Assembly: GCA_951406725.2 (NCBI GenBank)
Contig: OX597820.1
Span: 18,538,001 to 18,602,000, forward strand
DNA from: Octopus vulgaris
Lineage: Eukaryota
Direction: 5' to 3'
Length of the DNA stretch: 64,000 bases
Under the pieces are notes generated by a model that was not told the DNA's origin, made no database searches, and worked only from the letters and a program-made list of their open reading frames with translations. Positions 1,628 through 62,549 of the stretch are shown here, in pieces. The stretch's first letter is position 1; every line of letters starts with the position of its first letter. Made by a program: the position numbers and the translations under genes.

Positions 1628-2360
1628 CTCTAAATATTATAAATTTTCTCTAAATATTATAACTGTATCAAGTAATTTAACCATAACACGTGCTTCATAA
1701 TGTTCGGAACAGAAATACATATTGAACTCACTGACTACCATAAAAAGTTTGGAAATTTAGTATTTTTTCAGATATTAATAAAATTTTTCAGACCTATTTT
1801 CATGCTATCGGCCGTCAAAGATATGGAAACTTAGTGCACTCCGACTGCATGAAAATAGATTCGACTAATTTTATTATTATCTTAAAAAATAATAATTCTA
1901 CTCTCTAAAACAGTTTTCTTTCTTAATCCTAAAATTTTGAAAAAAATATTTCTCTAAATATTATAACTATTTCCAAAATAAACATTTTGAAAAAATCTTT
2001 CTCTAAATATTATAACTCTATCAAGTAATGTGCTCTATCAAGTAACATGTGCTCCATAACATTCGGAACTGAAATACGTATTGTACACACTCTCTCATAC
2101 AATATTACCTCACATAACTCTCTACCATAAAAATATTGGAAACTTAGTATTTTTTTAGATATTAATAAAATTTGTTGGACCTATTTTCATGCTATCGGCC
2201 ATTGGAGCTATGGAAACTTAGCGCACTTCAACTGCATGAAAATAGATTTGAATAATTTTATTATTACTTCAAAAATACGAAAAAATACTAAATTCAAACA
2301 TCTTTTTGGTCAAATATATTTAGAGTAATTCCAGACTATAAACAGCGCACATGAAAATAG
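1628..2360. repeat. ~350-bp diverged tandem duplication, each unit with an internal inverted repeat (possibly inside a Helitron/Helentron-like element starting ~1445)
   Basis: CTATTTTCATGC...GCATGAAAATAG hairpin at ~1794-1858 and ~2181-2245. Shared TTCTCTAAATATTATAAC motifs. Confidence 0.6.
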
Positions 2361-2800
2361 TGTTTAGCGACAATGGTTTAATTTTCCTTCAACTACAAAC
2401 AGAAGTTTAGGTATGAACCAGCTACTACAAATAATTATTTGTATGAAAAGTAAGGCCCTATGTACATCAAATTGTCTTTAAATTAAATGGCAGCAGAAGA
2501 ATTACTTTTAAAAGGTAAAATCCTTAAATCCTTAAAAATGTTTTAGCCCGAAGGCCGCGGCCATGCTGGGGCACCACCGCTGAAGTTTTTTTTTTTTTAA
2601 TCTTTAAAAGGTAAGTTTATTGTTGCCTACGGCCAGCTGTATGTTGATTGTTAAAGGCTGGGGAATGGAAACAAGCTATTTGTACTGACCCTGAATGGAA
2701 AGACAAAAAATGTTGTTTATCATGCAGCTTTGCAATAAGTTCCAAGTCGATAAATTATATCATTGTTTTGATGGAAATTGTTCGTTGCTTGAAAAACTTT

Positions 2801-3134
2801 TTACGGAGATGTACTTGCATAGCAAGTGACTTGATCTGAGATCGTGTGCTGGAACGAAAACAATTGCAGCATGGAAGGTGTTTATAAGCCATTTAAGAAA
2901 CACTCAAAAACCGTTAGATTCACTTTAACATTTAAATATAATTTGTCAAAATATTTTCGTCGCTTTGAGACCGTGACCTGTTCACTGGGATGCAGCACAG
3001 AATTTTGTCAGTGAACAGGTCACGGTGTCAAAGTGACGAAAATATTTTGAAAAATTAAATTTAAATGTTGAAGTGAATCTAACGGTTTTGTGTGTTTCTT
3101 AAATGGCTTATAAACACCTTCCATGCTGTAATTG
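2801..3134. mobile_element. Palindromic Penelope-LTR-like insert with 12-bp TSD
   Basis: ~130-bp inverted arms (~2859-2987 / 3009-3136), flanked by TTGAAAAACTTT at 2789-2800 and 3135-3146. Hammerhead-like fold in each arm. Confidence 0.7.
3004..3054 (+). ncRNA. Minimal type-I hammerhead ribozyme-like motif, G3-C8 core variant
   Basis: tttgtca|GTGAACA|G|GTCAC-ggtgtcaaa-GTGAC|GAA|AATATT|T|tgaaaaa. The mirror arm has the perfect stem-I partner tgacaaa. Confidence 0.6.
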
Positions 3135-3684
3135 TTGAAAAACTTTGTTCAAGTTTAATAAAATTTAATATGTACTCAAGGCATTTCACCCGGCATGCTA
3201 ACGTTTCTGTCAGCTCGCCAGAGTTGCAGAAGATTCTGAAGTCATCTGGAGGCCGTGGTTGAAGCCAAGGGTGATTTTATTGAATAAATGTACTCTTTAA
3301 TATTTCAAGATATTTTCATGTAATTTTGGTAAATATATTTGTTAAAATGAGATGTCAGTATTATTTTCACTTTTGCATAATTTAGATGGCAGGTTATTCT
3401 ATGCACCCTATGTGTAGATATGCATACACACGTCTGTATATGGTGTACATCTAGGACACTAGTTGTGTTGTTAAAGTTCTGGACTTAAAGTTGTTAATCC
3501 CTAATCAGAAGTTCAAATCTTGCTGCCATTGTTGAACTGCGATGCAAAGCAAAGCTTCTAACTGTTCCTAATGAATAGAAAACAGGTTCCACACCTACTT
3601 CATAACATCCAGCTGTGAAAACAAATACTGCAGAAAATAAACCATCCCACCCAAGCTTACTTGGGTAGAAAATGGAGAGAAAAC

Positions 3685-4048
3685 TGTATATGCATATATA
3701 CATGCATACATATATACATGCATGCATACATACAGTCAAGCATGCATACATACATACAAATAGGTATATATACACAGATATATATATATGAGTGTGTACA
3801 CATAAACACACTCACTCACGCACACATACATATATATGTATGTATTTATGTATATACATATACATATATATATATATAAATTTGTATGTGTATATATATA
3901 TCTGTATATACACACAGACACATACACACTAACTCTCTCATACATACAAACACACACATAGACACACACACACATATATATATATTTACAGATATACATA
4001 CATATATATATGTATATATAAATATATGTATGTATATGTATGTATATG

Positions 4049-5937: not shown

Positions 5938-6654
5938 GCTGTTAATATTAAAATTCCGAGTTTAAAAGTCATATCTTCAAAAAGTTCAATATATGGTTTC
6001 ATACACCATGGAAAATAGTAAAATAGTTTCTACTTTCACATAAAAATTGTTTATATTTATTTCTAAAATATTCAAGTTTTATGCTCTATAAATCTGACTG
6101 TTAATTTTTATAATGTTTGAATACATTTCAAATTTTTGGCAAAAATTAACAGACTAATTCACAGAACATAATACCTGTATATTTTCAGAAGTATAACCAA
6201 ATTTAAACATGAAATCACAAAAGAATAAATTATTTATTTTCTATTTCCATGGTATTTGAAACAGCTTCAGTTTTTGAATATGTTATTTTTTCTTCTTCTA
6301 AATGAGGAATTTTAATAACAAAAGCATTTTAATATATACTGTCGATTTGTTTTGTGTGAAATATAATTGTCTCCCAGTATTGTTATATAAACTGGTGGAG
6401 TACTTAAAGTAAACATGATTTGATATCAATATATATAAATTTAAATTGTGAAACAGTGATGGTGTAAATTGTTTTATGCCTTCCGTGGTGTATGAAATGA
6501 TATTCTGTTTGAAGACATGATTTCTAAATGAGGAACTTAATAACCTATTGAAATCTCAGATAATTACTGCGCAGTATTAATGGTCTAACACAGTGGTTCT
6601 CATCCAGGTCTGTATCTTCCCTGCGTGTCCATATAAGCTTTTGGGGATCTCATC

Positions 6655-6850
6655 ATCGATTAATGTCCGTTTTCCATGCTGGCATGGGTTGGACAGTTTG
6701 ACTGGGGACTAGCAAGCCAGGAAACCTCACCTGGCTCTAATCTGATCTGGCAATGTTTCTACAGCTGGATGCCCTTCCTAACACCAACCACTCCAAGAGT
6801 ATAGTGGGTGCTTTTTACATGCCACTGGAATGGGAGCCAGTCAGGGGGTT
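6655..6850. mobile_element. SINE family D fragment (TTTCCATGCTGGCATGGGTTGGAC...GCTGGATGCCCTTCCTAACACCAACC)
   Basis: Related copies near 5000, 37140-37385, 46950-47110 and 59480-59600. Confidence 0.65.
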
Positions 6851-6854
6851 GAAA

Positions 6855-7710
6855 GAGGAACTTCCTGGAAAGTTCCAAGGACGGGGAGCTGAAGGTGAAG
6901 GGAAGGAAGAGAAGGAAGGACTTTCTGGAAAAGTCCAAGGAGGGGAGTTGAAAGGAGGACTTCCTAGAAGGTTCCATGGAGGGGACAGAGGAGAGGAGGA
7001 AGGACTTTCTGGAAAATTCCAAGGTGGGGGAGATGAGAGTGAAGGGGAGGAAGGACTTCCTGGAAAGTTCCATGCAGGAGGCAGAGAGGAGGAGGAAGGA
7101 CTTCCTGAAAAAGTCCGAGAAGGTGGTGAAAGTGGGGACTTCCTGGAAAGTTCCAAGGAGGAGGAGCTGGGGGTGAATGGGAGGAAGGACTTCCTGGAAA
7201 AGTACAAGGATGGGGTGAAAGGGAAACTTCTTGGAAAGTTCCAAGGAGGGGTAGCAGATGAGGAAGGAGAGGAAGGATTTCCTGGAAAAGTCAAAGGGGT
7301 GAAATGTGGGACTTCCTGGAAAGTTCCAAAAAGATGGTTGATGGGGAGGGGAGGAAGGGCTTCCTGAAAAGTCCAAGTGGAGGGGTGAAACGGGGGAACT
7401 TCCTCGAAAATTCCAAGGAGAGAAGTGGAGGAATGACTTCCTGGAAATGTCCAAGGGGTGGGAAAAATGGAACTACCTGGAAAATTCCAAGGAGGGGAGT
7501 TGAGGGGGAAGGAGAGCAAGGACTTCATGGAAAGTTCAAGGAGCAATGAGAAAAGGGGTAATTTCCTAGAACATTCCAAGGAGTGGGAGTTGAGGGGGAA
7601 GGTGTGGAAGGACTTCCTAGAAAAGTTCAAGACGGGGTATATATGAGGGTAGGGAGGGGAAGAATGAGAGGAAGGGGAGGAAGAACATCCTGGAAAAGTC
7701 CAAGGAGGGG
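6855..7710. repeat. Minisatellite: 19 copies of a ~23-bp core GGACTTCCTGGAAAGTTCCAAGG with variable purine-rich spacers
   Basis: Cores start near 6861, 6921, 6960, 7005, 7056, 7101, 7139, 7190, 7227, 7278, 7312, 7360, 7399, 7437, 7473, 7523, 7562, 7613 and 7686. Confidence 0.9.
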
Positions 7711-8349: not shown

Positions 8350-8832
8350 ACTTTTACTCTTTTACTCTTTTGCTTGTTTCAGTCATGTGACTGTGGCCTT
8401 GATGGAGCACTGCCTTTAGTTGAGCAAATTGACCCCAGGATTTATTCTTTGTAAGCCTAGTACTTATTCTATTGGTCTCTTTTGCCGAATCGCTAAGTTA
8501 CGGGGACGTAAACACACCAGCATCAGAAACTGAAAGAAGCCCGTTGTATATAAGTATGTGTGTCTGTGTTTGTCCCCCAACATTGCTTGACAACTGATGC
8601 TGGTGAGTTTACGTCCCCGTAACTTAGCGATTCGGCAAAAGAGACCGATATATATATATATACACACATATATACGATGGGCTTCTTTCAGTTTCCGTCT
8701 ACCAAATCCACTCACAAGGCTTTCGTTGGCCCAAGGCTATAGTAGAAGACACTTGCCCAAGGTGCCACACAGTGGGACTGAACCCGGAGCCATGTGGCTG
8801 GTAAGGAAGCTACTTACCACACAGCCACTCCT
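8350..8832 (-). mobile_element. SINE family B (tRNA head, CORE-like) with internal inversion/duplication
   Basis: Tail on - (8350-8524), middle on + (8526-8650), head on - (8671-8832). Confidence 0.85.
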
Positions 8833-10467: not shown

Positions 10468-11981
10468 CTTTTTTTTTTCTTCTTTCAAATTTGCTTCCAT
10501 TTCTTGCCGAGTGTCTTCCCGACTCCTAGGGCAAAGAAACTCATAGTATACATTGGTAGGCCATTAAACCAAACTCAGTAGTTCGTTCATTTTTTTTTTT
10601 TTTTAAGTTAAATTAAAATACATGAGCAGCAACAGTTCTCACATCGACAATGCTCTTCTCAATACGTGTGATGTACCAGTTAAGACAATCTTTTGCACTT
10701 CTTGCAGGGATGGTAAGCCAGGGATCATTCTCATATAATTTTCGGTTCCCTTCTTGATCATTCCTAGTGCTCCTATGATCACTGGTATTGTAACCGCCTT
10801 GAGATGCCACATTTTCTCAATTTCAATGAGTAGGTCTTTATATTTTCTGAGCTTGTCAAACTCTTTCGCTGAGATATTATGATCACAGGGGATGCTCATG
10901 TCGATCAATAAGCAAACTTTATTGTTTTGGTCTTTCACAACAATATCTGGTTTATTGGCCTTGATGGTTCGGTCTGTAGGTACTGGAAAGTCCCACAGAA
11001 TGGTTACATTTTCTCCTTCAGTTACAGCCTCAGGGTGGTGATTATACCACTTGTCGGCAGTTTTGATATTGTAAAATGCCGACTTATTAGCCAGTGGAGA
11101 TATTGGCCAACTCTGTCATGTCTTAATTTATACTCCACTGGTGCTAAGACTTTACATCCAGAGATTAGGTGGTCCACTGTTTCAATCATGTTGTTGCAGA
11201 ATCGGCATTTTGGGTCTGCTCCATTTTTCATCACATTGGCCTGGTAGTTCCAGGTTAATAGGCTTTGATCTTGAGCAGCCAGGATGAAACCTTCGCTCTC
11301 TGCTTTTAGCCCTGAGCTCCGTAGCCACTGATGGGTTTGCTTCTGGTCAACATCAGCTTGTTTGCTGCGGGTCACATATTTGCCATGCAGAGGTTTCTCC
11401 TCCCACCTATCAGCCAATTGCTCGTGCGCTTTTTTTGTTGCCATCATTTTCACCTTCTTTGCAACAATAGTTGCCGTACTTCCCTCGGGTTGTTCAGTTT
11501 GGGTATCCTGCACGAGATCAATAGCAAATTTTTTGCTTTCCTTTATGATAGAATGAAGCTTCTTTCGTCTCTCGTGATTTTCCACGAGCTTTAGCATCCA
11601 GTCATTCGATATTTCGAGATATTTGGCCAGTCCAATTGTGGTTGTTTTGTAAGCTAGTTCAAATTGGATCAGGCCTCGACCTCCTTGGGCTCTGGGAAGG
11701 TAAAGGCGATCTACGTCTGCCTTTGGGTGGTGCATCCTATTACAACTCAGCAGCTTGCGTATTTTTCTATCTATATTCTTTACTTCACTCATATTCCAGT
11801 TCAACACATTGTAGCTATAAGTAACAACTGGAACTGCTAAGGAATTTATAGCTAACACCTTGTTACGTGCATTTAGTTCAGATTTCAGGACTGCACGAAC
11901 TCTCCTATAACATTCCTTCCTGATCTTCTCTTTCATGCTTGCATGCTGAATACCAGAGCCTTCATTTATCCCTAAATATTT

Positions 11982-11982
<1 letters not shown>
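10468..11982 (-). mobile_element. 5'-truncated R4/Dong-clade non-LTR retrotransposon (RT thumb, CCHC finger, restriction-like endonuclease), one frameshift
   Basis: ORFs 11022-11936 and 10639-10938: YKYLG, RLYLPRAQGGRGL, CRFCNNMIETVDHLISGC, RHD, KPDIVVKD..LIDMSIP..K..KY. Frameshift at ~11073. (TTA)n on both flanks. Confidence 0.9.
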
Positions 11983-12042
<60 letters not shown>

Positions 12043-15708: not shown

Positions 15709-17887
15709 TCAGGTCATCCCATAAGTTCCGTCCGAATTTTGAATAAAGAAAACAAGTGATCAAATGTTATATTTAATTGAAATTTAATCATCAATGTACT
15801 TTCCCTGATTATCTATGACTTCCATCTATTTACAAGCTTTTTAATCCCATCAGTATAAAACTCTTTTGGTTTCAAAGCGAAGAACTCTGAAATGTCAATT
15901 TCAACCTCCTCCTGGCTTGCGAAAGTTATGTCCCCCAAATGAATCTGTAAATTATGAAACAAATGGTAGTCTGAATGAGCAAGGTCGGGAGAATAAGGTG
16001 GATGAGGAATTTTTTCCCAACCTAGCTCTTCGATCTTCTGTGATGTGATCTTTGCAGTGTGGGGTTGTGCATTGTCCTGATGAAACATCACGGATCTTTT
16101 CAATTCTGAAGCCAGGACCACAGATCTTTCTACTTAACTAAATATTCTGAAACTTCGTATGCTGATAGAGTCTAGCAAAACAAGACACAGGTTGGAACTA
16201 GTTTATTTGAGAAAAATCTATTTTATGACTTTAATCGTAGATTAAAACTGCGAATTTTAACCAATCAGATTGTTTGTTTTCATGTGTAAAACTTGACTGC
16301 ATTCTATTAGTGTGACGTAGAAAGCGCTTTTGTGACGTACTAACGTTCGGAAAACTGTAAACAAACACAGAATGTAACGGCAGACGAAATACGGCTACGC
16401 ATTTCGCCTGGCGTGCTAACGTTTCTGCCAGCTCTTTGCTTTTTTAATATTAAATTTCTTGCCTTTTGCACAAATAAATACAATAAGTGAAATGAAACGC
16501 ATTAGCTTAGAAACGAAATCTTGTTAGAAGCCTCGTCACTGAGATGCCACTTCTTAATAGCAACGAAAGCAAGTACTAACAGAATGGAAACATTTTCAAT
16601 TTAATACATGTGGCTTATTAACTAGTTTTAAATATTGTTATTAGAAGGTGGCTGACTATAGGATCCTGGAAACATGAGTACGTTAAATAATTAGAAGGAG
16701 ATTTCACGGAGACATGCGGCTTGTTTACATTTAAGATGTTTAATACGTCACCAAATTGGTGGTTGAGACAGAGTAAATAAAATAAAGCCGAATGACGGAA
16801 TATCATTGGTTAAAATTCTAATTATTAAACAACGTTAAACTTAGAAGTTACAATTCCATTTTCATTCTGGTTTACAATTAAGTTTACTTTTGACACATTC
16901 TACCAGTATACGAAGTTTCAAATTGTTTGGTTCAGTAGGAAAAATTTGAAAAAACTGGCTTCAGAATTGAAAAGATCCAACATCACTCCTTTTTAATTCA
17001 CTAAAGCAGGTCATATTTTCTTCAAAGCTTGGTTCAAATGCTCTAATTGCTGACAGTAGACTTGAGCATTGATTGTTGCATTAGGTGGTAACAATTCAAA
17101 GTGAATTACTCCTTTGCAATCCCACCAGAAGAACCTTTTTCCCATGAAGTTCCCTTCTCAGTTGCGGTTGAGCTTTTTCACTTTTACCAGGCCACTGTTT
17201 AGAATGGTTAACATTTTGATAGAAGATCCATTTTTCGTCACCAGTCACAAGTCTATCCAAAAAGGGTGAAATGAGTTCGTGAGAATGGAGAGAAGAGCAA
17301 ATGTCAACTCAGGATTTGCGGTTGCTTTCGGACAATTCACGAGGCACCCATTTTCCATTTTCCAAGTTTAAGAACCTTTCCAAGTTGTTGAAGATAACGA
17401 TGAACAGTTGTATGGTTTGAACTAATCTTTATTGCCAATTCTTCAACTGATAATGCAGGATTTTCTTCAAGCAATGCCTTAAGGAGCTTATCATCAAACT
17501 CAACTGGACATCCTGTTCGATCTTCATCTTCAAGGCTGAAATCTCCACTTCTGAATTTCACAAACCATCTTCTGCAAGTTCTTTCATTCAAGCATTCTTT
17601 CCCATAAACTGAGTGTATGTTTCGAGTCGCTTCGGCTGCAGAGTTTCCTGTTTTTGTACTCATAAAGCATTATGTGCCTCAAATGCTCTTTGGATACTTC
17701 CATGTTAGAAAGTGTTTTAATCAAAGAAATTTTAATTCTATTATTCTGTAAAATAATACTTAATTAGTTTAAATGTATACAAATGCATAAAAATAATTTT
17801 TAATTCCATTAGATATTCTAAAATACTATTAAATTTCATTCAATTTTAAAAAAGGTAAAATCGGACACAATTTATGGGATGACCTGA
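15709..17887 (-). mobile_element. Full-length decayed mariner (D,D34D) transposon interrupted by a MITE
   Basis: TIR TCAGGTCATCCCATAA..GTCCGA at both ends with TA TSDs (15707-8, 17888-9). Transposase from ATG ~17703: MEVSKEHLRH..SAAEATRNI..VTGDEKW..HQDNAQPH..HPPYSPDLAHSDYHLF. Frameshifts and stops. Confidence 0.95.
16092..16978. mobile_element. 887-bp non-autonomous DNA transposon, 24-bp perfect TIR, 8-bp TSD (Merlin-like GG ends; superfamily uncertain)
   Basis: GGATCTTTTCAATTCTGAAGCCAG / CTGGCTTCAGAATTGAAAAGATCC. TSD AACATCAC at 16084-16091 and 16979-16986. Imperfect IR extends ~110 bp. Confidence 0.9.
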
Positions 17888-29550: not shown

Positions 29551-29750
29551 CCGGAGTAAACACATAAATGTGAAACAAGGTGGAAAAAAGAGTACTCAAA
29601 TACCAGTGGTAAAGTAATATGCTTTATTTAAAGCAGCAGAAAATTCAACAAAACCTGTTACTCTAAGTTTCCCGTTGCCGTTCGTCGGACAGTTTTTGCT
29701 AGCAAAAACTCAGAGTAACAGGTTTTGTTGAATTTTCTGCTGCTTTAAAT
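29551..29750. mobile_element. Penelope-LTR-like inverted-repeat fragment with decayed hammerhead (29655-29692, - strand)
   Basis: IR TTTAAAGCAGCAGAAAATTCAACAAAACCTGTTACTCT. Minus strand: ctgt|CCGACGA|ACG-gcaa-CGG|GAA|ACTtagAGT|A|acag. Same family at 53673-53851 and 57481-57553. Confidence 0.65.
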
Positions 29751-29754
29751 ATAG

Positions 29755-29792
<38 letters not shown>

Positions 29793-30454
29793 GACAGGCT
29801 TCTTCCATCTACCAAATCCGCTCACAAGGTTTTGATCAGGAGACACTTACCCTCGGTGTCACATGCAGTAGGACTCAACCCTGAACCATGTGGTTGGGAG
29901 GCAAGTTTCTTACCACACAGCCACACTTGCGCCTATAGCCACGCCTAAAGTTGATTTCCCTGCCTTTGTCTTTGTGAGGTTGATAAAATAAGTTACCATC
30001 CAAGTTGGTTGTGTCACTTGAGCCAACTTAACTGACATCTCCAAAATAAATGGTCTTCTGCCAAAATTAGAAATCAATAATTCTAAATTCTGTAATATAT
30101 CTGTTTATTTTGCTTTGTTTTATTTTATTATTATTATTTTTTTTTGCTATATTTTATTTTGCTATGTTTTGCTTCTTTTATTAATATTTTTACATTTCGT
30201 TCTTCTGTTTTTTTCTTCGTTTTTTTTTATTTTTCTTTCTTTCCTTTCAGAATTTTCGAGATAATTATATATTGCAACTTAGGAAGGAGGATTGATTATC
30301 GTTATGCTTAAAAAAAAAAAAAAAAATTCAATTTTATTACTTTCGTGATTTTGTTACTGAGCTTCAAATATTCAATATCAATTACGTTAATTTTTCCACT
30401 CACTATTCCTGGGAGGGTCATGGTGGGAGTGTCCTCAGTCAGGCATCTACTGTT

Positions 30455-31056
30455 ACCTTCTGAGTTCAAATTCCGCCAAGGTCAACTTTGCCTTTCATCC
30501 TTTCAGAGTCAATTAAATAAGTACCTATTTCTTTACTACCCACAAGGGGCTAAACATATAAGGGACAAACAAGGACAGACAAACGGATTAAGTCGATTAC
30601 ATCGACCCCAGTGTGTAACTGGTACTTAATTTATCGACCCCGAAAGGATGAAAGGCAAAGTCGACCTTGGCGGAATTTGAACTCAGAACATAACAGCAGA
30701 CGAAATACAGCTACGCATTTCGCCCGGCATGCTAACATTTCTGCCAGCTTGCTGCTCGCCTCAATTAAATAAGTACCAGTTACACACTAGGGTCGATGTA
30801 ATCGACTTAATCCCTTTGTCTGTCTTTGTTTGTCTTCTCTGTATTTAGCCCCCTGTGGGTAGTAAAGAAATAGGTATTTCATTTGCTGTTACGTTCTGAG
30901 TTCAAATCCGCCGAGGTTGACTTTGCAGTTCATCCTTTCATGGTCAATAAAATAAGTACCAGTTACACACTGGGGTCGATGTAATCGACTTTATCTCTTT
31001 GTCTGACCCTGTTTGTCCCCTTTATGTTTAGCCCCCTGTGAGCAATAAAGAAATAA
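30455..31056 (+). mobile_element. Family-A SINE dimer with an inverted family-A copy (30526-30760) inserted
   Basis: 17-bp TSD TCAATTAAATAAGTACC at 30509-30525 and 30761-30777. Confidence 0.9.
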
Positions 31057-47606: not shown

Positions 47607-48139
47607 TATACTTTTATATATCATCTTCATATCATCTGTTTAAGTTATTTGACTGCAGCCATGCTGGAGCATTTCCTTGTAGGGTTTCAGCCAAACAAAT
47701 CGACCTGAGGACCTAGCTTTTAAGCCTAGTACTTATTCTATTCGTCTCTTTTGCTGAACTGCTAAGTTACAGGGACATAAACAAACCAACACCGGTTGTC
47801 AAGCAGTTATAGGGGAAGAAACACAGACGCAAAGACACTTGCACACACACACATACATATGACAGGCTTCCTTCAGTTTCTGTCCACCAAATCAATTCAC
47901 AAGGGTTTGGTTGGCCTGAGGCTATAGTAGAAGGCACTTGCCCAAGGTACTATGCTGTGGGACTGAACTCAGAACTATGTGCTTGGGAAGCAAGTTTCTT
48001 ACCACACAACCATGCCTGCACCTAGTGGTATATATATATATGAAATTAAATAATAAGGGTAGAAATTGATATTAATCAATTAAAACCAGTGGCTTAGCAT
48101 ATTTAAAAAATCCAAAGATTCAAAATTGTATTACATACA

Positions 48140-48307
48140 TAGGCGCAGGAGTGGCTGTGTGGTAAGTAGCTTGTTTACCAACCACATGGTTCTGGGTTCA
48201 GTCCCACTGCGTGGCACCTTGGGCAAGTGTCTTCTACTATAGCCTCGGTCCGACCAAAGCCTTGTGAGTGAATTTGGTAGACGGAAACTGAAAAGAAGCC
48301 CGTCGTA

Positions 48308-48338
<31 letters not shown>

Positions 48339-48553
48339 GCGTGTGTGTGTTTGTGTGTCTGTGTTTGTCCCCCTAGCATTGCTTGACAACCGATGCTGGT
48401 GTGTTTATGTCCCCGTAACTTAGCAGTTTGGCAAAAGAGACTGATAGAATAAGTACTGGGCTTACAAAAAGAATAAGTCCCGGGGTCGAGTTGCTCGATT
48501 AAAGGCGGTGCTCCAGCATGGCCGCAGTCAAATGACAGAAACAAGTAAAAGAG
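48140..48553 (+). mobile_element. Full-length SINE family B; older inverted copy at 47635-48023
   Basis: Near-identical to 58588-59003. Confidence 0.93.
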
Positions 48554-50999: not shown

Positions 51000-52162
51000 T
51001 TTTTCGCTCTATCTAATCATGTTACTCTTTTTCTTTTTGAATAATTTATCATTTTTCTCCGGAACATTGAATACAACATGGACAAAAAGCATATTCACAC
51101 AATTTTCTTATTCCAGTTCAAGCTAGGCCAAAAAGCTGCTGAAACAGCTTGTGACATCAACGATGCATTTGGCCCATGAATCACTAATGAACGGGCAGCA
51201 CAATGGTGGTTCAAGAAATTTTGTAGCGGTGACAAGAGTCTTGAAGATGATAAGCGTAATGGTCGGCCATCAGATGTTGACAACGATCAACTAAGAGCCT
51301 CAGTGGAAGCCAATCCACACACAACTGTTCAAGAGCTTGCTTCTGAATTAGACGTAGTGTATATGACAATTTCCAACCGCTTGAAAGAGATTGGAAAGAC
51401 AAAATTATTTGAGAAATAGGTGCCGCATGAATTGAACAACCAAAAAAAAAAAAACGCCATTTTGAAGTGTCGTCTTCTCTCCTTTTATGCAACAAGAATG
51501 ACCCGTTTCTCAACTGGATTGTGACTTGCAATGAAAAGTGGATTCTTTATGACAATGGGAGACACTCAGTTCAGTGGTTGGACGCCGACGAAGCTCCATG
51601 GCACTTGCCGAAGCCAAAGCTGAACCAAAAGAAGGTCATGGTGACTGTTTGGTGGACTGCAGCCAGTCTTATCCATCACAGCTATTTGGATCCAGGCGAA
51701 AGCATAATGGCAGAGAAGTACTGTCAGCAAATGGATGAAATGCGTAAGAAACTCTGACAACAACAGCCAGCATTGGTCAATTGGAAAGCACCAATTCTTC
51801 TCCATGACAACACTCAGCCACATGTCTCACAACTGATTCTGCAGAGTTGAATGAATTGGGCTACAAAACTCTGCCTCATCTGCCATACTCACCAGACCTC
51901 TCGCCTACCGACTACCACTTTTTCAAGCTCCTCAACAACTTCCTGCGTGATAAATGCTTCAAAATCCAAGACGATGCCAAACACACCCTCAACGCCTTCA
52001 GGATTTATTTATGCTACTGGCATAAATAAACTTGATTTCGCGTTGGCAAAAGTGTGTTGATTCTGATGGTGTTTATTTCGATTAATAAAGTTTTGTTTGA
52101 GCCCAGATATGTGCATCTGAATTTAAAGGTTAAAAACCACAAGAATTTTCTTGACAACCGCA
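51000..52162 (+). mobile_element. Decayed Hsmar1-like (cecropia-subfamily) mariner, left TIR missing
   Basis: ATG 51078: MDKKHIHTIFLFQFKLGQKAAETA..QWWFKKFC..DVDNDQLRA..IVTCNEKWILYDN..QKKVMVTVWW..LLHDN..PH..YSPDLSPTDYHFFK..RWQKCVDSDGVYFD*. Right TIR followed by TA. Several stops and frameshifts. Confidence 0.93.
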
Positions 52163-55455: not shown

Positions 55456-55611
55456 TGTGTATGTGGATAGAATTCGATCAGAGGTTGTGTTAACCTCATG
55501 AAAGGATGGTTTCATCGAAAGAAACACTGGTCCAATACCTAGTACTTTGGCGGAATTAATTTCCTTAAACTACTGGGTATATGTATAAAAACATATAGTT
55601 TATATTCATAT

Positions 55612-56003
55612 AAAAGATAAAAAAGAAAATGGAGATTGGGAAGTTAATAATTGTTTATTATAAACAATAATTTAATAATTATCCCTTACAGTTGTTTCAA
55701 GCAATACTCAGTAAATTTAAGTAAATATTAAATTTATATGACCTGTGCATAATATCTTCAGAATGGAAAAAAAATATACATTTGGATGACCATTCAGTCT
55801 GCTATAATGAATCCATAAACACTTATAAAACATCCAAGGGTATCTTTTTTTCCCTCTGAAAATATTATGCTCAGGTGATATAAATTTCATATTTACTTAA
55901 TATAAACTGAGTATTGATTGAAACAGCTGTAAGGTATAATGATAATTTACCGTTAACAATAAACAATTATTAACTTCCCAGTCTCCATTTTCTTTCACTT
56001 TTT
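55612..56003. mobile_element. Palindromic Penelope-LTR-like insert with a hammerhead in each arm (55682-55765 on -, 55851-55936 on +)
   Basis: ~175-bp inverted arms. Consensus of the arms: tccct|CTGAAGA|long stem II ATGCTCAG/CTGAGTAT|GAA|ACAGCTGT|A|aggga. Confidence 0.75.
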
Positions 56004-56658
56004 ATATATATCTATATATGTGTGACAAGCTTCTTTCAGTTTCCATCTATCAATTCCACAGAGCTTCAGTTAACTCAGCATTATATTAGAAGACATTTGC
56101 TCAAAGTGCCGCGAACTAGGACTGACCTATACAGCCATGCCTGGTTCAAAATGTTTATAAAAATCCATTGAGATGAACCAGGAATTGAGATTAATTAGTA
56201 CTCTAATTATAAAACAGTGTTCACTGCATAATTAAGCAATAAAAATTATGTTTCAATCTTCCCAATGTTTCCAGCATCAGAATTAACTAAAGTAAGGTTA
56301 ACTATGGTGATTAAAAAACTATTATTGCTTAGCTAATATTATTCTTTGAGCAAGCAAGCAAGGGAGTTAACTTCAAAAGTTTCAGCATTATTAGCCTTCA
56401 TCAGGGGAAACATACACTTTGCTGTTTATTGCTGGTAATGTAGTAACTAGCTTATTAAATAGAGATGATGGTTAAAAATGATTTAGTGGTGCTAGGAAAT
56501 TAGATTAATTAATAATTTAATCATCAAGAAATTTTGACTGCATAATTAAATCTAGAAATGCTGAGATTCATTATTTCCAGTGTTATCAGCGATGGAAATA
56601 AGTGCAGCAGGAGTGAACGCTCGCTGAATATCACTTACTTACAAACATGATCTTGCAA

Positions 56659-59003: not shown

Positions 59004-60078
59004 TATATATATATATGATGGGCCTCCACACAGTTTCCATCAACCAAATCTTCTCACAAGGCAATGGTAGAACTGTGGGGCTTTGGTAACTTGACCAAGG
59101 TGGGTACCACACTGTGGGATTGAACCTGAAACAACATAGTCGCAAAGCAAGCTTCTTAACCGCTCAGCCATACCTGCGCCTGTATCCAAAACAGTGTAAA
59201 TAGATCTTGAGATAATATCGTATTCGAGCTGGAGTTTTGAGATGTGGAATTATCAAAAGGTCAGACAAATGACATAACAGATTGTTTTGCTGCAAGCAAT
59301 AGTCAAAGACAGTCTGGAACATCTCTCCACTCGGCTGATGATGAAATTGTAGATTATATGATGTAGTAAATAAATTAAGCAACATGAGAGAATAGACAGA
59401 CAGACAGACAGACTGAGCAGGTGGTTTAAAGGAAAAAAAGAAATAAAGAATCATTGAGGGTTTAAAACTGAAAACCACCATCGTTTTAACGTCCACTTTT
59501 CCATGCTTGTATGGGTCAAGAATTAGTCAAGGTGGCTTTTCTATGACTGACTGGATGCCCTTCCTGTCACCAAACTTCACCTATTCCCAAGTAATCTTTT
59601 ATCTTTTATCTTTTATTTGTTTCAGTTATATGACTGCAGCCATGCTGGAGCATCACCTTGAAGAGTTTCAAACAAACAAATCAATCCAAGGATCTTTTTT
59701 TTTTTCTAAAACCTGGTACTTATTCTATCAGTCTCTTTTTGCCGAAATACTAAATTACAGGGACATAAACACACCAACACTGGCTGTCAAGCGATGGTGG
59801 GGGACAAACACACACACACAAACACACACACATCTATAAATTTAAAGAAAACAGAAAATGGAGAATTACTGATGAGCAACAATTGACTTACATCAATTAT
59901 TATTTATTAATTCAATACAAATAGACTGTATTTGGTCAGCCTGAGGCTATAGTAGAAGACATTTTCCCAAGGTGCCACACAGTGGGACTAAAGCCTGAAC
60001 CATGTGGGATTTCCACTTATTTCTTTTTTATTTTCCTAAAATTTTCGTTACGTCTTGCAACCTTTTCAATAATCTTGA

Positions 60079-60115
60079 CTATTGAAAAGGTTGCAAGATG
60101 CAACGAAAAGTTTAG
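60079..60115 (+). ncRNA. Minimal hammerhead-like motif, U3-A8 core variant, in palindromic insert 60009-60212
   Basis: cta|TTGAAAA|G|GTTGC-aagat-GCAAC|GAA|AAGT (AATT in the mirror arm)|T|tag. IR arms 60009-60071 / 60080-60144. Related copy at 62365-62465. Confidence 0.55.
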
Positions 60116-60443
60116 GAAAATAAAAATAAGAGATAAGTGGAAATTTTACCGGTGAGTGTGTTAAATTATAAGGCACAAAAAGAAAATGACTCTCCCCAGA
60201 CACAACAGAATACATACATATATATATATATAGGCATGGCTGTGTGGTTAGGGAGCTTGCTTCCTAGCTACATGGTTTCGGGTTCAGTCCCACTGCGTGG
60301 CACTTTGGGTAGGTGTCTTCTGCTATACCCCCCCCCCCCCGAGCCGACCGGAGCTTTGTGATTGAATTCGGTAGGCGGGAGTTACTGCCGTGTGTGTATG
60401 TGTGCGTATAGCTGCTCAGTGCCTCTCCAAAAGAGAGAGAGGG

Positions 60444-60554
<111 letters not shown>

Positions 60555-62549
60555 GGACTGGCTTCTTTCACTTTCCATACAGCCACAGAAGAAGACACTT
60601 ACCTGCCCAAGGTGCTCCACAGTAGGACTGGACCCTAAACCATTTGCTCAGGAAGCAAACATCTTACCATGCAGCCATGCTTGCTCCTACCTGATGATAT
60701 CATTTGAGAAGAGGCTTAGGCTGAAGGTGAAAGAGAAAACAGAAAGCAAATTTTCCATTGTTTTAACTCTTGCACCACACCTCAAACCAATGAAAGTTAT
60801 TATGGATTATAAAGCAAAGCAATCTTAATTATCATTGGTTCAGTCCATTAGATAGAATACATGTAATGTGAGATGGTCCAGGCCATCACTGCAAGTGGCA
60901 GAAATTCTGTATAATTAATTCATTGATGATGTTTGACTGCAGGACTGAGAATTGCTGCGTACATCAGACTAGAATGAAAAATATTGATTTCTGAAAGATC
61001 CCAAATTGATCTGTTTCGTTTTGTAACGAGAGAGAAATAACGGAAACATGCATGCACACAAGCACACACATACACACACACATGTACACATGCTCAAACG
61101 TGGCAGTTGATTAAAGAAGTGAGTCATGGGGGGGCTTTTTGTTTAGCCTTGCAAGCAATAAGGCAACCCTACTGGTGTTGGTGCAATGAAGAGAGCACCC
61201 AGTGCATTCTGTAAAGTGGCTGCTGAATTAATCAGTGACAATGAGAGCTGGGAGAATTCTTTGGTCTTAATAAGGGGAAAACAATCTCTATTATGCTGGT
61301 GTTTATGAAAATATGCACCCTGTGTGCTCTGGAAAAGCGCGAGGCAAATTCAACGTATAGAGTTTGAATTAAAGATACTTAGGCTCACAATTAGCATTTA
61401 AAAATTTACGTGTGTGTGTGAGAGAGAGAGTATGTGGGGGAGGGGGGAGAGAGAGAGTGTGCGTGTGTGCGAGAGAGAGAGTGAGTGTGTGTGTGTATGC
61501 ATGTGTGGGAAAGTGTGTGTGTATGTGTGTGTGCATGTGTATGTGTGCATGCATGCATATGTGTGTAAGAGAGAGAAAAGTGTGTGTGTGTGAGTGTGTA
61601 TGTGCATGCATGCATGTGTAAGAGAGGGTGTTGCGTGTGTATGCATGTGTGTGAGAGTGTGTGTGCATGTGTGCATGCATGCATGTGTGAGAGAGAGAGT
61701 GAGTGTGTGTATGTATGCATGCATGCATGTGTGAGAGTGTGTGTATGTATGCATGCATGCATGAGAGACAGAGTGAGTGTGTGTGTGTATGCATGTGTGT
61801 GAGAGTGTGGGTGTGTGAGTGTGTGTGCATGCGTGCACGTGTGTGTGTGTGAGAGAGAGTGTGTGTGCATGTGTGTATGCATGTGTACATGTGTGTGTGA
61901 GAGAGAGAGTGTGTGTGCATGTGTGTGTGTGAGAGAGTGTGTGTGCATGTGTGTATGCATGTGTACATGTGTGTGTGAGAGAGAGAGTGTGTGTGTGAGA
62001 GAGTGTGTGTGCATGTGTGTATGCATGTGTGTGTGTGAGAGAGTGTACATGTGTGTATGCATGTGTACGTGTGAGAGACAGAGAGTGTGTGTGTGTGCAT
62101 GTGTGTATATGTGTGTGTGAGAGAGAGAGAGAGAATGTGTGTGTGTGAGAGGGAGAGGGAGAGAGAGAACGTGTGTGTGTGCACATGCATGCATGTATGT
62201 GTATAAGAGAGAGAGAGAGTGTGTATTTGTATGTGTGCACATGTGCGCATGTGGGCATGTTCCCATTATTTCCCTCTCACTAAAGTAAATTTCTTCCTTT
62301 CATCACACTTTAATCTCTAATCTTTCAGTCATGGAAACATTTCAGTCTTGCAAGTTACCAAGTTTTGAAAATAAAAATAAGAAATAAGTGGAAATTTTTT
62401 CCGGTGAGTGTGTTAAATAATAAGGCACAAAAAGAAAATGACTCTCCCCAGACACAACAGAATATCCTTCAACACACGAACTCATATAAAGAATCTTGCA
62501 AACCAAATCCAAAAACGAAACCTGTAAGTTGTTTGGCAAATTAAGCAGT

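Follow-up and report, generated by a model that had tools for sequence, protein, structure and literature searches.

Hammerhead ribozymes are a recurrent feature of Penelope-like elements (PLEs), and whether they work in vivo or merely ride along with the element is debated (PMC8557442; PMC11167929). The minimal hammerheads (min-HHRs) of PLEs are recognized by an extra base between positions 9 and 10.1, a G10.1-C11.1 pair and a palindromic helix III (PMC4209133), and PLE insertions show an inverted, 5'-truncated copy together with a one-sided tail (PMC8557442; PMC8969392). In the Penelope element of D. virilis the intron ends at helix I (PMC4209133). In PAc, a Poseidon PLE of Anolis carolinensis, the hammerhead is found at the start of the ORF and reverse transcription starts within the ORF (Frangieh et al. 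2024, PMC11167929), with a tail that spans the distance between two reverse transcription start sites (PMC11167929). In the same study no read ends were seen at the cut site of PAc, yet cleavage did occur with the protein, and mutants of the hammerhead left insertion in vitro unaffected (PMC11167929).

With respect to the tertiary pair between core positions 3 and 8, all 34 of the 34 cores in the hammerhead table of PMC8557442 read CUGANGA. The natural covariation that has been described in print is U3-A8 (PMC3088659; PMC4209133, the latter for Schistosoma). A single C3G or G8C exchange inactivates the PAc hammerhead, and part of the cleavage returns in the double mutant (PMC11167929); rescue by the G3-C8 double mutant is also documented in PMC8495972 and PMC3884650. 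In searches of full-text literature, a G3-C8 hammerhead was found only as an engineered mutant. A 2026 repeat annotation of O. vulgaris reports 31 recently active Penelope-like families, and the word ribozyme is absent from its accessible text (PMC13282606); the family described below may already be part of that existing repeat library.

Here we analyze a 334-base insert within 64 kb of repeat-rich animal DNA from Octopus vulgaris, a stretch that is referred to as the window throughout. The insert belongs to an octopus repeat family of very high copy number. We consider this family to be, with high probability, the pseudo-LTR (pLTR) of a PLE, and it carries a predicted minimal type I hammerhead with a G-C pair at positions 3 and 8.

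Anatomy of the insert

The features of the insert and its immediate borders are as follows.

2789-2800, plus strand: left copy of the target-site duplication, AT-rich
2801-2858, minus strand: 58-nt family tail, absent from the other arm; marks the 3' end of the insertion, which falls within ORF codon 31
2801-2892, minus strand: first 30 codons of a longer ORF with its ATG at 2892, likely a PLE ORF start
2859-2987, minus strand: long arm, a 5'-truncated sense copy that is cut within the 5' strand of stem I
2942-2987, minus strand: left hammerhead motif, the 5' strand of stem I mostly gone
2987-2989, no strand: head-to-head inversion joint, private to this copy
2989-3136, plus strand: short arm, an inverted copy without tail, with the ORF ATG at 3103
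3004-3054, plus strand: right predicted hammerhead with a G3-C8 core (G3011, C3016), predicted cut 3' of 3047
3135-3146, plus strand: right copy of the target-site duplication, its first 2 nt common with the arm end

The direct repeat TTGAAAAACTTT flanks the insert at 2789-2800 and 3135-3146. At the same spacing, 12 or more common letters occurred in 15 of 3000 random pairs from the window. As the first two letters of the right copy (3135-3136) also continue the arm, the target duplication is 10-12 bp long. It is located in another repeat of lower copy number (window 3137-3260), and no paralogous empty site was found in the 64-kb window. That lower-copy repeat also contains, at 3181-3220, a 40-nt piece of an abundant SINE-like repeat that has many copies in the window.

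Identity between the two inverted arms (2859-2987; 3009-3136) is 88%, and the entire insert folds with -205 kcal/mol (z -27). They are nevertheless unequal at both ends. The minus-strand copy is 58 nt longer at one end (tail 2858-2801), while at the other the plus-strand copy begins 20 nt further upstream, at 2989, the minus-strand arm starting at the equivalent of 3009. Because the arms start at different places, the centre of the insert is the longer 5' end of one arm rather than a loop. With respect to the predicted cut, the short arm stops 89 nt and the long arm 148 nt downstream. Terminal inverted repeats at both ends in a constant structure are absent, with a tail outside the repeat and variable joints. 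The preliminary description had proposed a self-contained palindromic mobile unit, a view that we abandon, as inversion points differ among copies and the insert ends within a longer ORF. Its 334-bp insert with target duplication and inverted arms was found as described, but the label non-coding does not apply, since the minus-strand ATG at 2892 opens 30 codons.

Two Octopus proteins start with the peptide encoded here, P0001 (XP_029654200.2, O. sinensis, 325 aa; E 2.6e-8) and P0002 (O. bimaculoides, 167 aa; E 1.6e-5). Beyond the insert peptide they have 120 or more residues in common and are 78% identical over the alignment, and the end of the insert falls inside the next codon (31) of the P0001 frame. 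Six residues that match the final 18 nt of the tail are missing from P0002. What was recovered of the element ORF is limited to its N-terminal 220 residues. In the P0001 gene model, this N-terminus (residues 1-221) is fused to a part that resembles the PRMT3 methyltransferase (223-311). The element was probably inserted in that gene, which would have led to a chimeric annotation. The continuation of P0001 (HL.F...C...v.PK; L..LEL.KF near residue 215) resembles what we take to be the canonical PLE N-terminus, with LELPKF, not the GxKF/Y of the N-terminal PLE motif, just before the gene model joins the PRMT exon. No longer relative of P0001 residues 1-221, and no link to RT or GIY-YIG, was found among 1133 candidates. 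The Atlas search returned no usable match for the element ORF, Pfam no family in the N-terminal part of P0001, and near the insert neither RT nor GIY-YIG was found among the 106 frames listed (105 distinct) of 215 candidates. P0002 had no matches in viral contigs or PDB sequences. A minus-strand frame that crosses the hammerhead (2882-3004) is without relatives and was rejected as an ORF.

Upstream of the short arm, a CTAAC word is followed by a stretch of pyrimidines and an AG that ends at 2989, a sequence common to 235 and 153 RNA reads. This sequence resembles the 3' end of an intron, in which 2989 would be the G of a putative splice-site AG, placed 14 nt upstream of helix I; spliced reads were not found among the rows listed. 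The upstream loose-end consensus also holds a perfect 16-nt palindrome that is centred 22 nt before 2989 and overlaps the branch-like word. This palindrome has no copy in the 64-kb window.

The predicted hammerhead and a sister family

In the right arm the order of elements given in the preliminary description (stem I, GTGAACA, an extra purine, stem II, GAA, AATATT and U) was recovered at 3004-3054. Stem I is formed by 3004-3010 with 3048-3054, with six of seven pairs and a private G-A mismatch of G3007 opposite A3051. The core GTGAACA (3011-3017) and an extra G (3018) lead into stem II, 3019-3023 with 3033-3037, which is followed by GAA (3038-3040), the helix III palindrome AATATT (3041-3046) and U17 at 3047. 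U17 is a less favoured site for hammerhead cleavage. The core residues U4 G5 A6, A9, G12 A13 A14, A15.1-U16.1 and H17 are all present (3012-3047), as are the closure of stem II by G10.1-C11.1 and the extra base after A9. The canonical C3-G8 letters are absent, with G3-C8 in both arms and family-wide. In the left motif the core is at 2985-2979, the extra G at 2978 and stem II at 2977-2973 with 2963-2959, including an A-C mismatch; GAA, AATATT (2955-2950) and U17 (2949) follow. A stem I defect had been proposed for each arm. The right one is the G3007/A3051 mismatch, but the left one is a 5' truncation at joint 2987.

A descriptor that allows any Watson-Crick pair at positions 3 and 8 yielded two matches in the 64-kb window. 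In Markov controls of 64 kb there were none in 60 with the strict form and one match in 60 with the loose form. Rfam searches, by comparison, produced no hammerhead family among 80 matches at E up to 10 in 2000-4000, and nothing at gathering score in the whole window. Published descriptors begin from CUGANGA, as laid out in PMC8557442, so that neither they nor Rfam pick up this very large repeat family, in line with the preliminary description, which states that standard motif scans miss the swapped core. Two of the eight close inverted repeats in the window carry a descriptor match. The six without one (47637-48543, 55591-56021, 29615-29761, 30446-30700, 8470-8650 and 5996-6262) are probably MITEs or inverted SINE pairs. 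The window also contains Tc1/mariner transposase remnants and a LINE-type zf-RVT remnant (17340-17669, 15816-16133, 51180-51754, 11025-11984), as well as a purine-rich, tandem-like array with a 20-nt word at irregular spacing (6828-7710).

Folding energies give the hammerhead no preference over other folds. In the fold of the whole copy the stem II pair probability is near zero, in the right arm the hammerhead fold reaches -9.0 versus -9.2 for the lowest-energy fold, and an imposed hammerhead dimer reaches -10.0 versus a cofold minimum of -22.5. As any transcript of this copy would form the arm-arm hairpin, it is likely dead as a ribozyme, and we regard it as probably inactive. A dimer within the palindrome is not feasible either: the two folds reside on opposite strands, and with one sense motif per transcript they cannot pair up in cis.

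The second descriptor match, at 60069 on the minus strand, belongs to a sister family with two copies in the window.

60009-60211, plus strand: sister family copy 1, U3-A8 minimal hammerheads, ORF ATG at 60186
62360-62524, plus strand: sister family copy 2, cut short after the hammerhead, ORF ATG at 62438

Copy 1 has unequal head-to-head arms (60009-60074 and 60077-60144) and a tail ending at (TA)n, and the helix III palindrome of this family is AATT. The ORF start of copy 2 is homologous to P0001 residues 6-31 (13 of 26 identical, E 3e-6). Compared to the peptide of the main insert, none of 20000 shuffles reached the score of the copy 2 peptide, which is also its best non-self six-frame match. 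Identity between the two ORF starts by codon position is 16/18/9 of 25. Copy 2 and the main insert seem to end at one and the same codon, N31 of P0001.

When the DNA of the two inserts is compared, they match best in the hammerhead itself (27 nt, 81%, E 0.008). The flanking DNA is not alignable, and the core letters other than the 3-8 pair are common to both families. Over the four motifs, this pair is GC twice and UA twice, Watson-Crick in both families, and pair 3 of stem II is CG twice and UA twice; these covariations come from two independent families and amount to no more than two independent events. On visual inspection the inner pairs of stem I differ too while pairing is kept, UCA/UGA in one family and CUA/UAG in the other. 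The A-U pair in stem II of the right arm was left out of the covariation, since CpG decay on both strands could explain it. A U3-A8 core that comes with a compensatory change in stem II suggests, on sequence grounds, that the 3-8 pair is under selection. Together with a G3 that holds throughout the family, the sister core upholds the interpretation of G3-C8 as a compensated form of CUGANGA.

The repeat family in public sequencing reads

The stretch or part of it is contained in at least 20 public runs from four organisms, and four of these (two DNA, two RNA) were aligned to 2975-3260, corresponding to one arm and its flank. The run index marks none of the runs with the stretch as RNA, which counts neither way. 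Summed depth over the arm was 1.1-4.2 million, as opposed to about 30-80 for single contigs. This ratio places the family on the order of 10^4 copies, a rough figure as summed depth is no copy number.

Opposite-strand joints made up 12 of the 15 joints listed from a total of 51. They link 2985-3001 to eleven distinct positions in the range 3032-3106, and each joint is present in one or two contigs per run. The loose end of the family behind 3136 is the 58-nt tail (2858-2801) in all four runs. Run X2 contains a joint from 3123 to 3003, with ATATAT between, at a depth of 1587 or about 30 times the single-copy depth. It possibly represents a short head-to-tail or inverted subfamily, and a tandem form would permit hammerhead dimers. 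Head-to-tail pLTR-ORF-pLTR tandems were not found in the 64-kb window.

Variants in the family were taken from contigs, which drop rare variants. A change of G to C at 2% or above occurs at one place only, 3027, in both DNA runs. As this is not G3, C3 lies below 2% in the family, and G3 is fixed family-wide. No core A is changed at 2% or above in either DNA run, with the A>G and A>C places all accounted for, and C>G is found at two places, outside the variant rows listed. The majority letters of the family, G3022 (84-86%), C3034 (87-90%) and C3051 (97-98%), result in a perfect stem II and a complete stem I. In 28-30% of the family A3050 is replaced by G, which keeps a U-G pair in stem I. In a comparison of core and flank, none of six non-CpG lineage variants fell into the 28 core and stem positions of 148 (p about 0.28, from 40 listed of 161 variant rows), which is no significant excess of conservation in the core.

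The two RNA runs showed no pile-up of read starts or ends at 3047/3048, and both strands were covered about equally. G12 reads A in 9-17% of RNA reads. Within 2989-3136 the RNA runs X23 and X24 have A>G at 28-34 and T>C at 32-34 places, versus 7-8 and 8 in DNA, and C>T and G>A counts are alike in RNA and DNA runs. Among the RNA sites, 3080/3081 and 3101, for example, have a 5' U neighbour. The excess resembles A-to-I editing of double-stranded RNA, in a comparison where RNA and DNA runs are from different organisms.

The exact family pattern had no match in metagenome contigs. The looser combination of G3-C8 with AATATT matched 118 metagenome loci, drawn from about 10 of the 64 parts of the contig collection, none of them with at least four pairs in stem II and at least three in stem I. 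A recurring group of eight loci (L006 type) was rejected for its poor stem II and a DNA-transposon-like terminus. In viral contigs the looser pattern matched 18 loci, none with more than three pairs in stem II.

Origin of the insertion and relation to known elements

Membership of the family among the PLEs is likely, judged from anatomy and min-HHR traits. Of the preliminary description, the PLE-type minimal hammerhead with a compensated core is supported. Most probably the insertion arose in the ordinary manner of PLEs, as a sense copy that is truncated at its 5' end and carries there a second copy, inverted and likewise truncated. In the scheme that we propose, an RT/GIY-YIG protein would have nicked AT-rich DNA, and reverse transcription would have begun within the element's own ORF, about 92 nt and 33 nt past the ATG, as in PAc. 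The two start points would give rise to the long and short ends and to the 58-nt tail, each copy would have halted near the hammerhead or the intron end, and the palindrome would be a by-product of that single insertion. In a tandem master RNA the hammerhead would be expected to cut slowly after U17, either as a dimer through AAUAUU or with the element's protein, and G3-C8 would keep the tertiary pair of the active state.

Other origins for the palindrome were considered. One is a short foldback retro-unit, non-autonomous and propagated as a constant palindrome, in which later deletions would have produced the variable centres. The lack of a linked RT, the 16-nt upstream palindrome and the fact that most joints have one partner at 2985-3003 would fit such a unit, but the joints are spread over 75 nt with none of them abundant, and the median length of the upstream loose ends (54-59 nt) is what unique sequence would give, with no strand-change joint reported for them. 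The ORF moreover runs past the insert in two species, and arms of different length, together with a tail on one side, are typical of PLE insertions. We deem this origin unlikely. A DNA transposon of the MITE or foldback kind, in which the hammerhead-like string occurs by chance, would explain the long inverted repeat and the target duplication, and six of the eight close inverted repeats in the window do without a descriptor match. This possibility is largely refuted, and hardly credible, given that the repeats are not terminal but leave a one-sided 58-nt tail, that descriptor matches are rare in controls and that the ORF start is kept at the protein level between two families. The ORF and hammerhead might finally derive from a different, non-PLE kind of coding element, in line with the missing RT and endonuclease and the lack of a named homologue. 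For PLEs, however, the combination of a tail, an inversion at the 5' end, min-HHR traits and an intron-like sequence upstream has been described, and we consider a non-PLE source very improbable.

The catalytic state of the motif is a separate matter. Starting from the same PLE origin, G3-C8 might be a non-cutting relic or a protein-binding fold, retained for folding or RNP assembly or brought about by two chance changes in a master copy. No RNA ends were seen at the cut site, the hammerhead folds are weak and face competing folds, and U17 is not the favoured residue for cleavage. PAc mutants insert normally in vitro, and rescue by G3-C8 is only partial (PMC11167929). On the other hand, PAc likewise shows no read ends yet cleaves with its protein (PMC11167929), a Watson-Crick 3-8 pair is the contact of the active state, and the remaining core letters match those of the U3-A8 sister in spite of unalignable flanks. 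A non-cutting motif is thus an alternative of some weight, on balance doubtful. That RNA of the family truly cleaves is our prediction, held with slightly better than even confidence. The more specific proposal, an active natural G3-C8 hammerhead fixed in a PLE family of ~10^4 copies, whose sisters switched among G-C, U-A and C-G and are still paired, is tentative and in our estimate falls a little short of an even chance.

If true, this proposal would imply in vivo selection for catalysis by PLE hammerheads, and swapped cores would go unnoticed in PLE families that scans for CUGANGA now score as lacking a hammerhead. In the two related octopus families, positions 3 and 8 hold different letters but still form a Watson-Crick pair, while the rest of their DNA can no longer be aligned, which is evidence from nature that the active-state contact is selected for. 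A natural G3-C8 would complete the covariation series of C3-G8 and U3-A8. The families make the function of PLE hammerheads directly testable by cleavage.

Among described elements, Hydra-1_Obim, Naiad_Obim and Naiad_Ovul (Craig et al. 2021, PMC8557442) come from the same host genus, Octopus. The hammerhead core of Hydra-1_Obim is C3-G8 (PMC8557442), in contrast to G3-C8 in the present family, and short DNA or peptide strings of either of our families are absent from the supplement of that study. The supplement of PMC4209133, as far as it is searchable, holds no octopus entry. The metazoan non-LTR retrozymes (PMC7229834) are similarly short, of high copy number and hammerhead-bearing, and PLE machinery is presumed for them; they are however non-coding head-to-tail repeats, whereas the insert is head-to-head and contains an ORF start. 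With the Penelope element of D. virilis it has in common a putative intron 3' end by helix I (PMC4209133) and the inverted 5' pLTR (PMC8557442). The D. virilis hammerhead differs in its 2-bp helix I and bulged helix II, and the putative octopus intron is known solely as a loose-end consensus.

The min-HHRs in the pLTRs of metazoan PLEs (Cervera and de la Pena 2014, PMC4209133) resemble the octopus motif in their type I topology, extra base, G10.1-C11.1 pair and palindrome, and they too occur mostly as solo copies, with opposite-strand pairs 100-700 bp apart (PMC4209133). What sets the octopus family apart from them is the G3-C8 core, a 6-nt palindrome, AAUAUU, and a majority stem I of 7 bp. 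With PAc the insert shares a hammerhead at the ORF start, an end inside the ORF, a tail between two ends and an AT-rich target (PMC11167929), and its short arm ends 89 nt past the cut, compared to 85-92 nt in PAc (PMC11167929). The tail is 58 nt long here versus 30-40 nt in PAc (PMC11167929), and the ATG, located in stem II in PAc (PMC11167929), follows 57 nt after the predicted cut in the octopus family. The core of PAc is C3-G8, and the G3-C8 pair that characterizes the octopus family exists in PAc only as an engineered rescue (PMC11167929).
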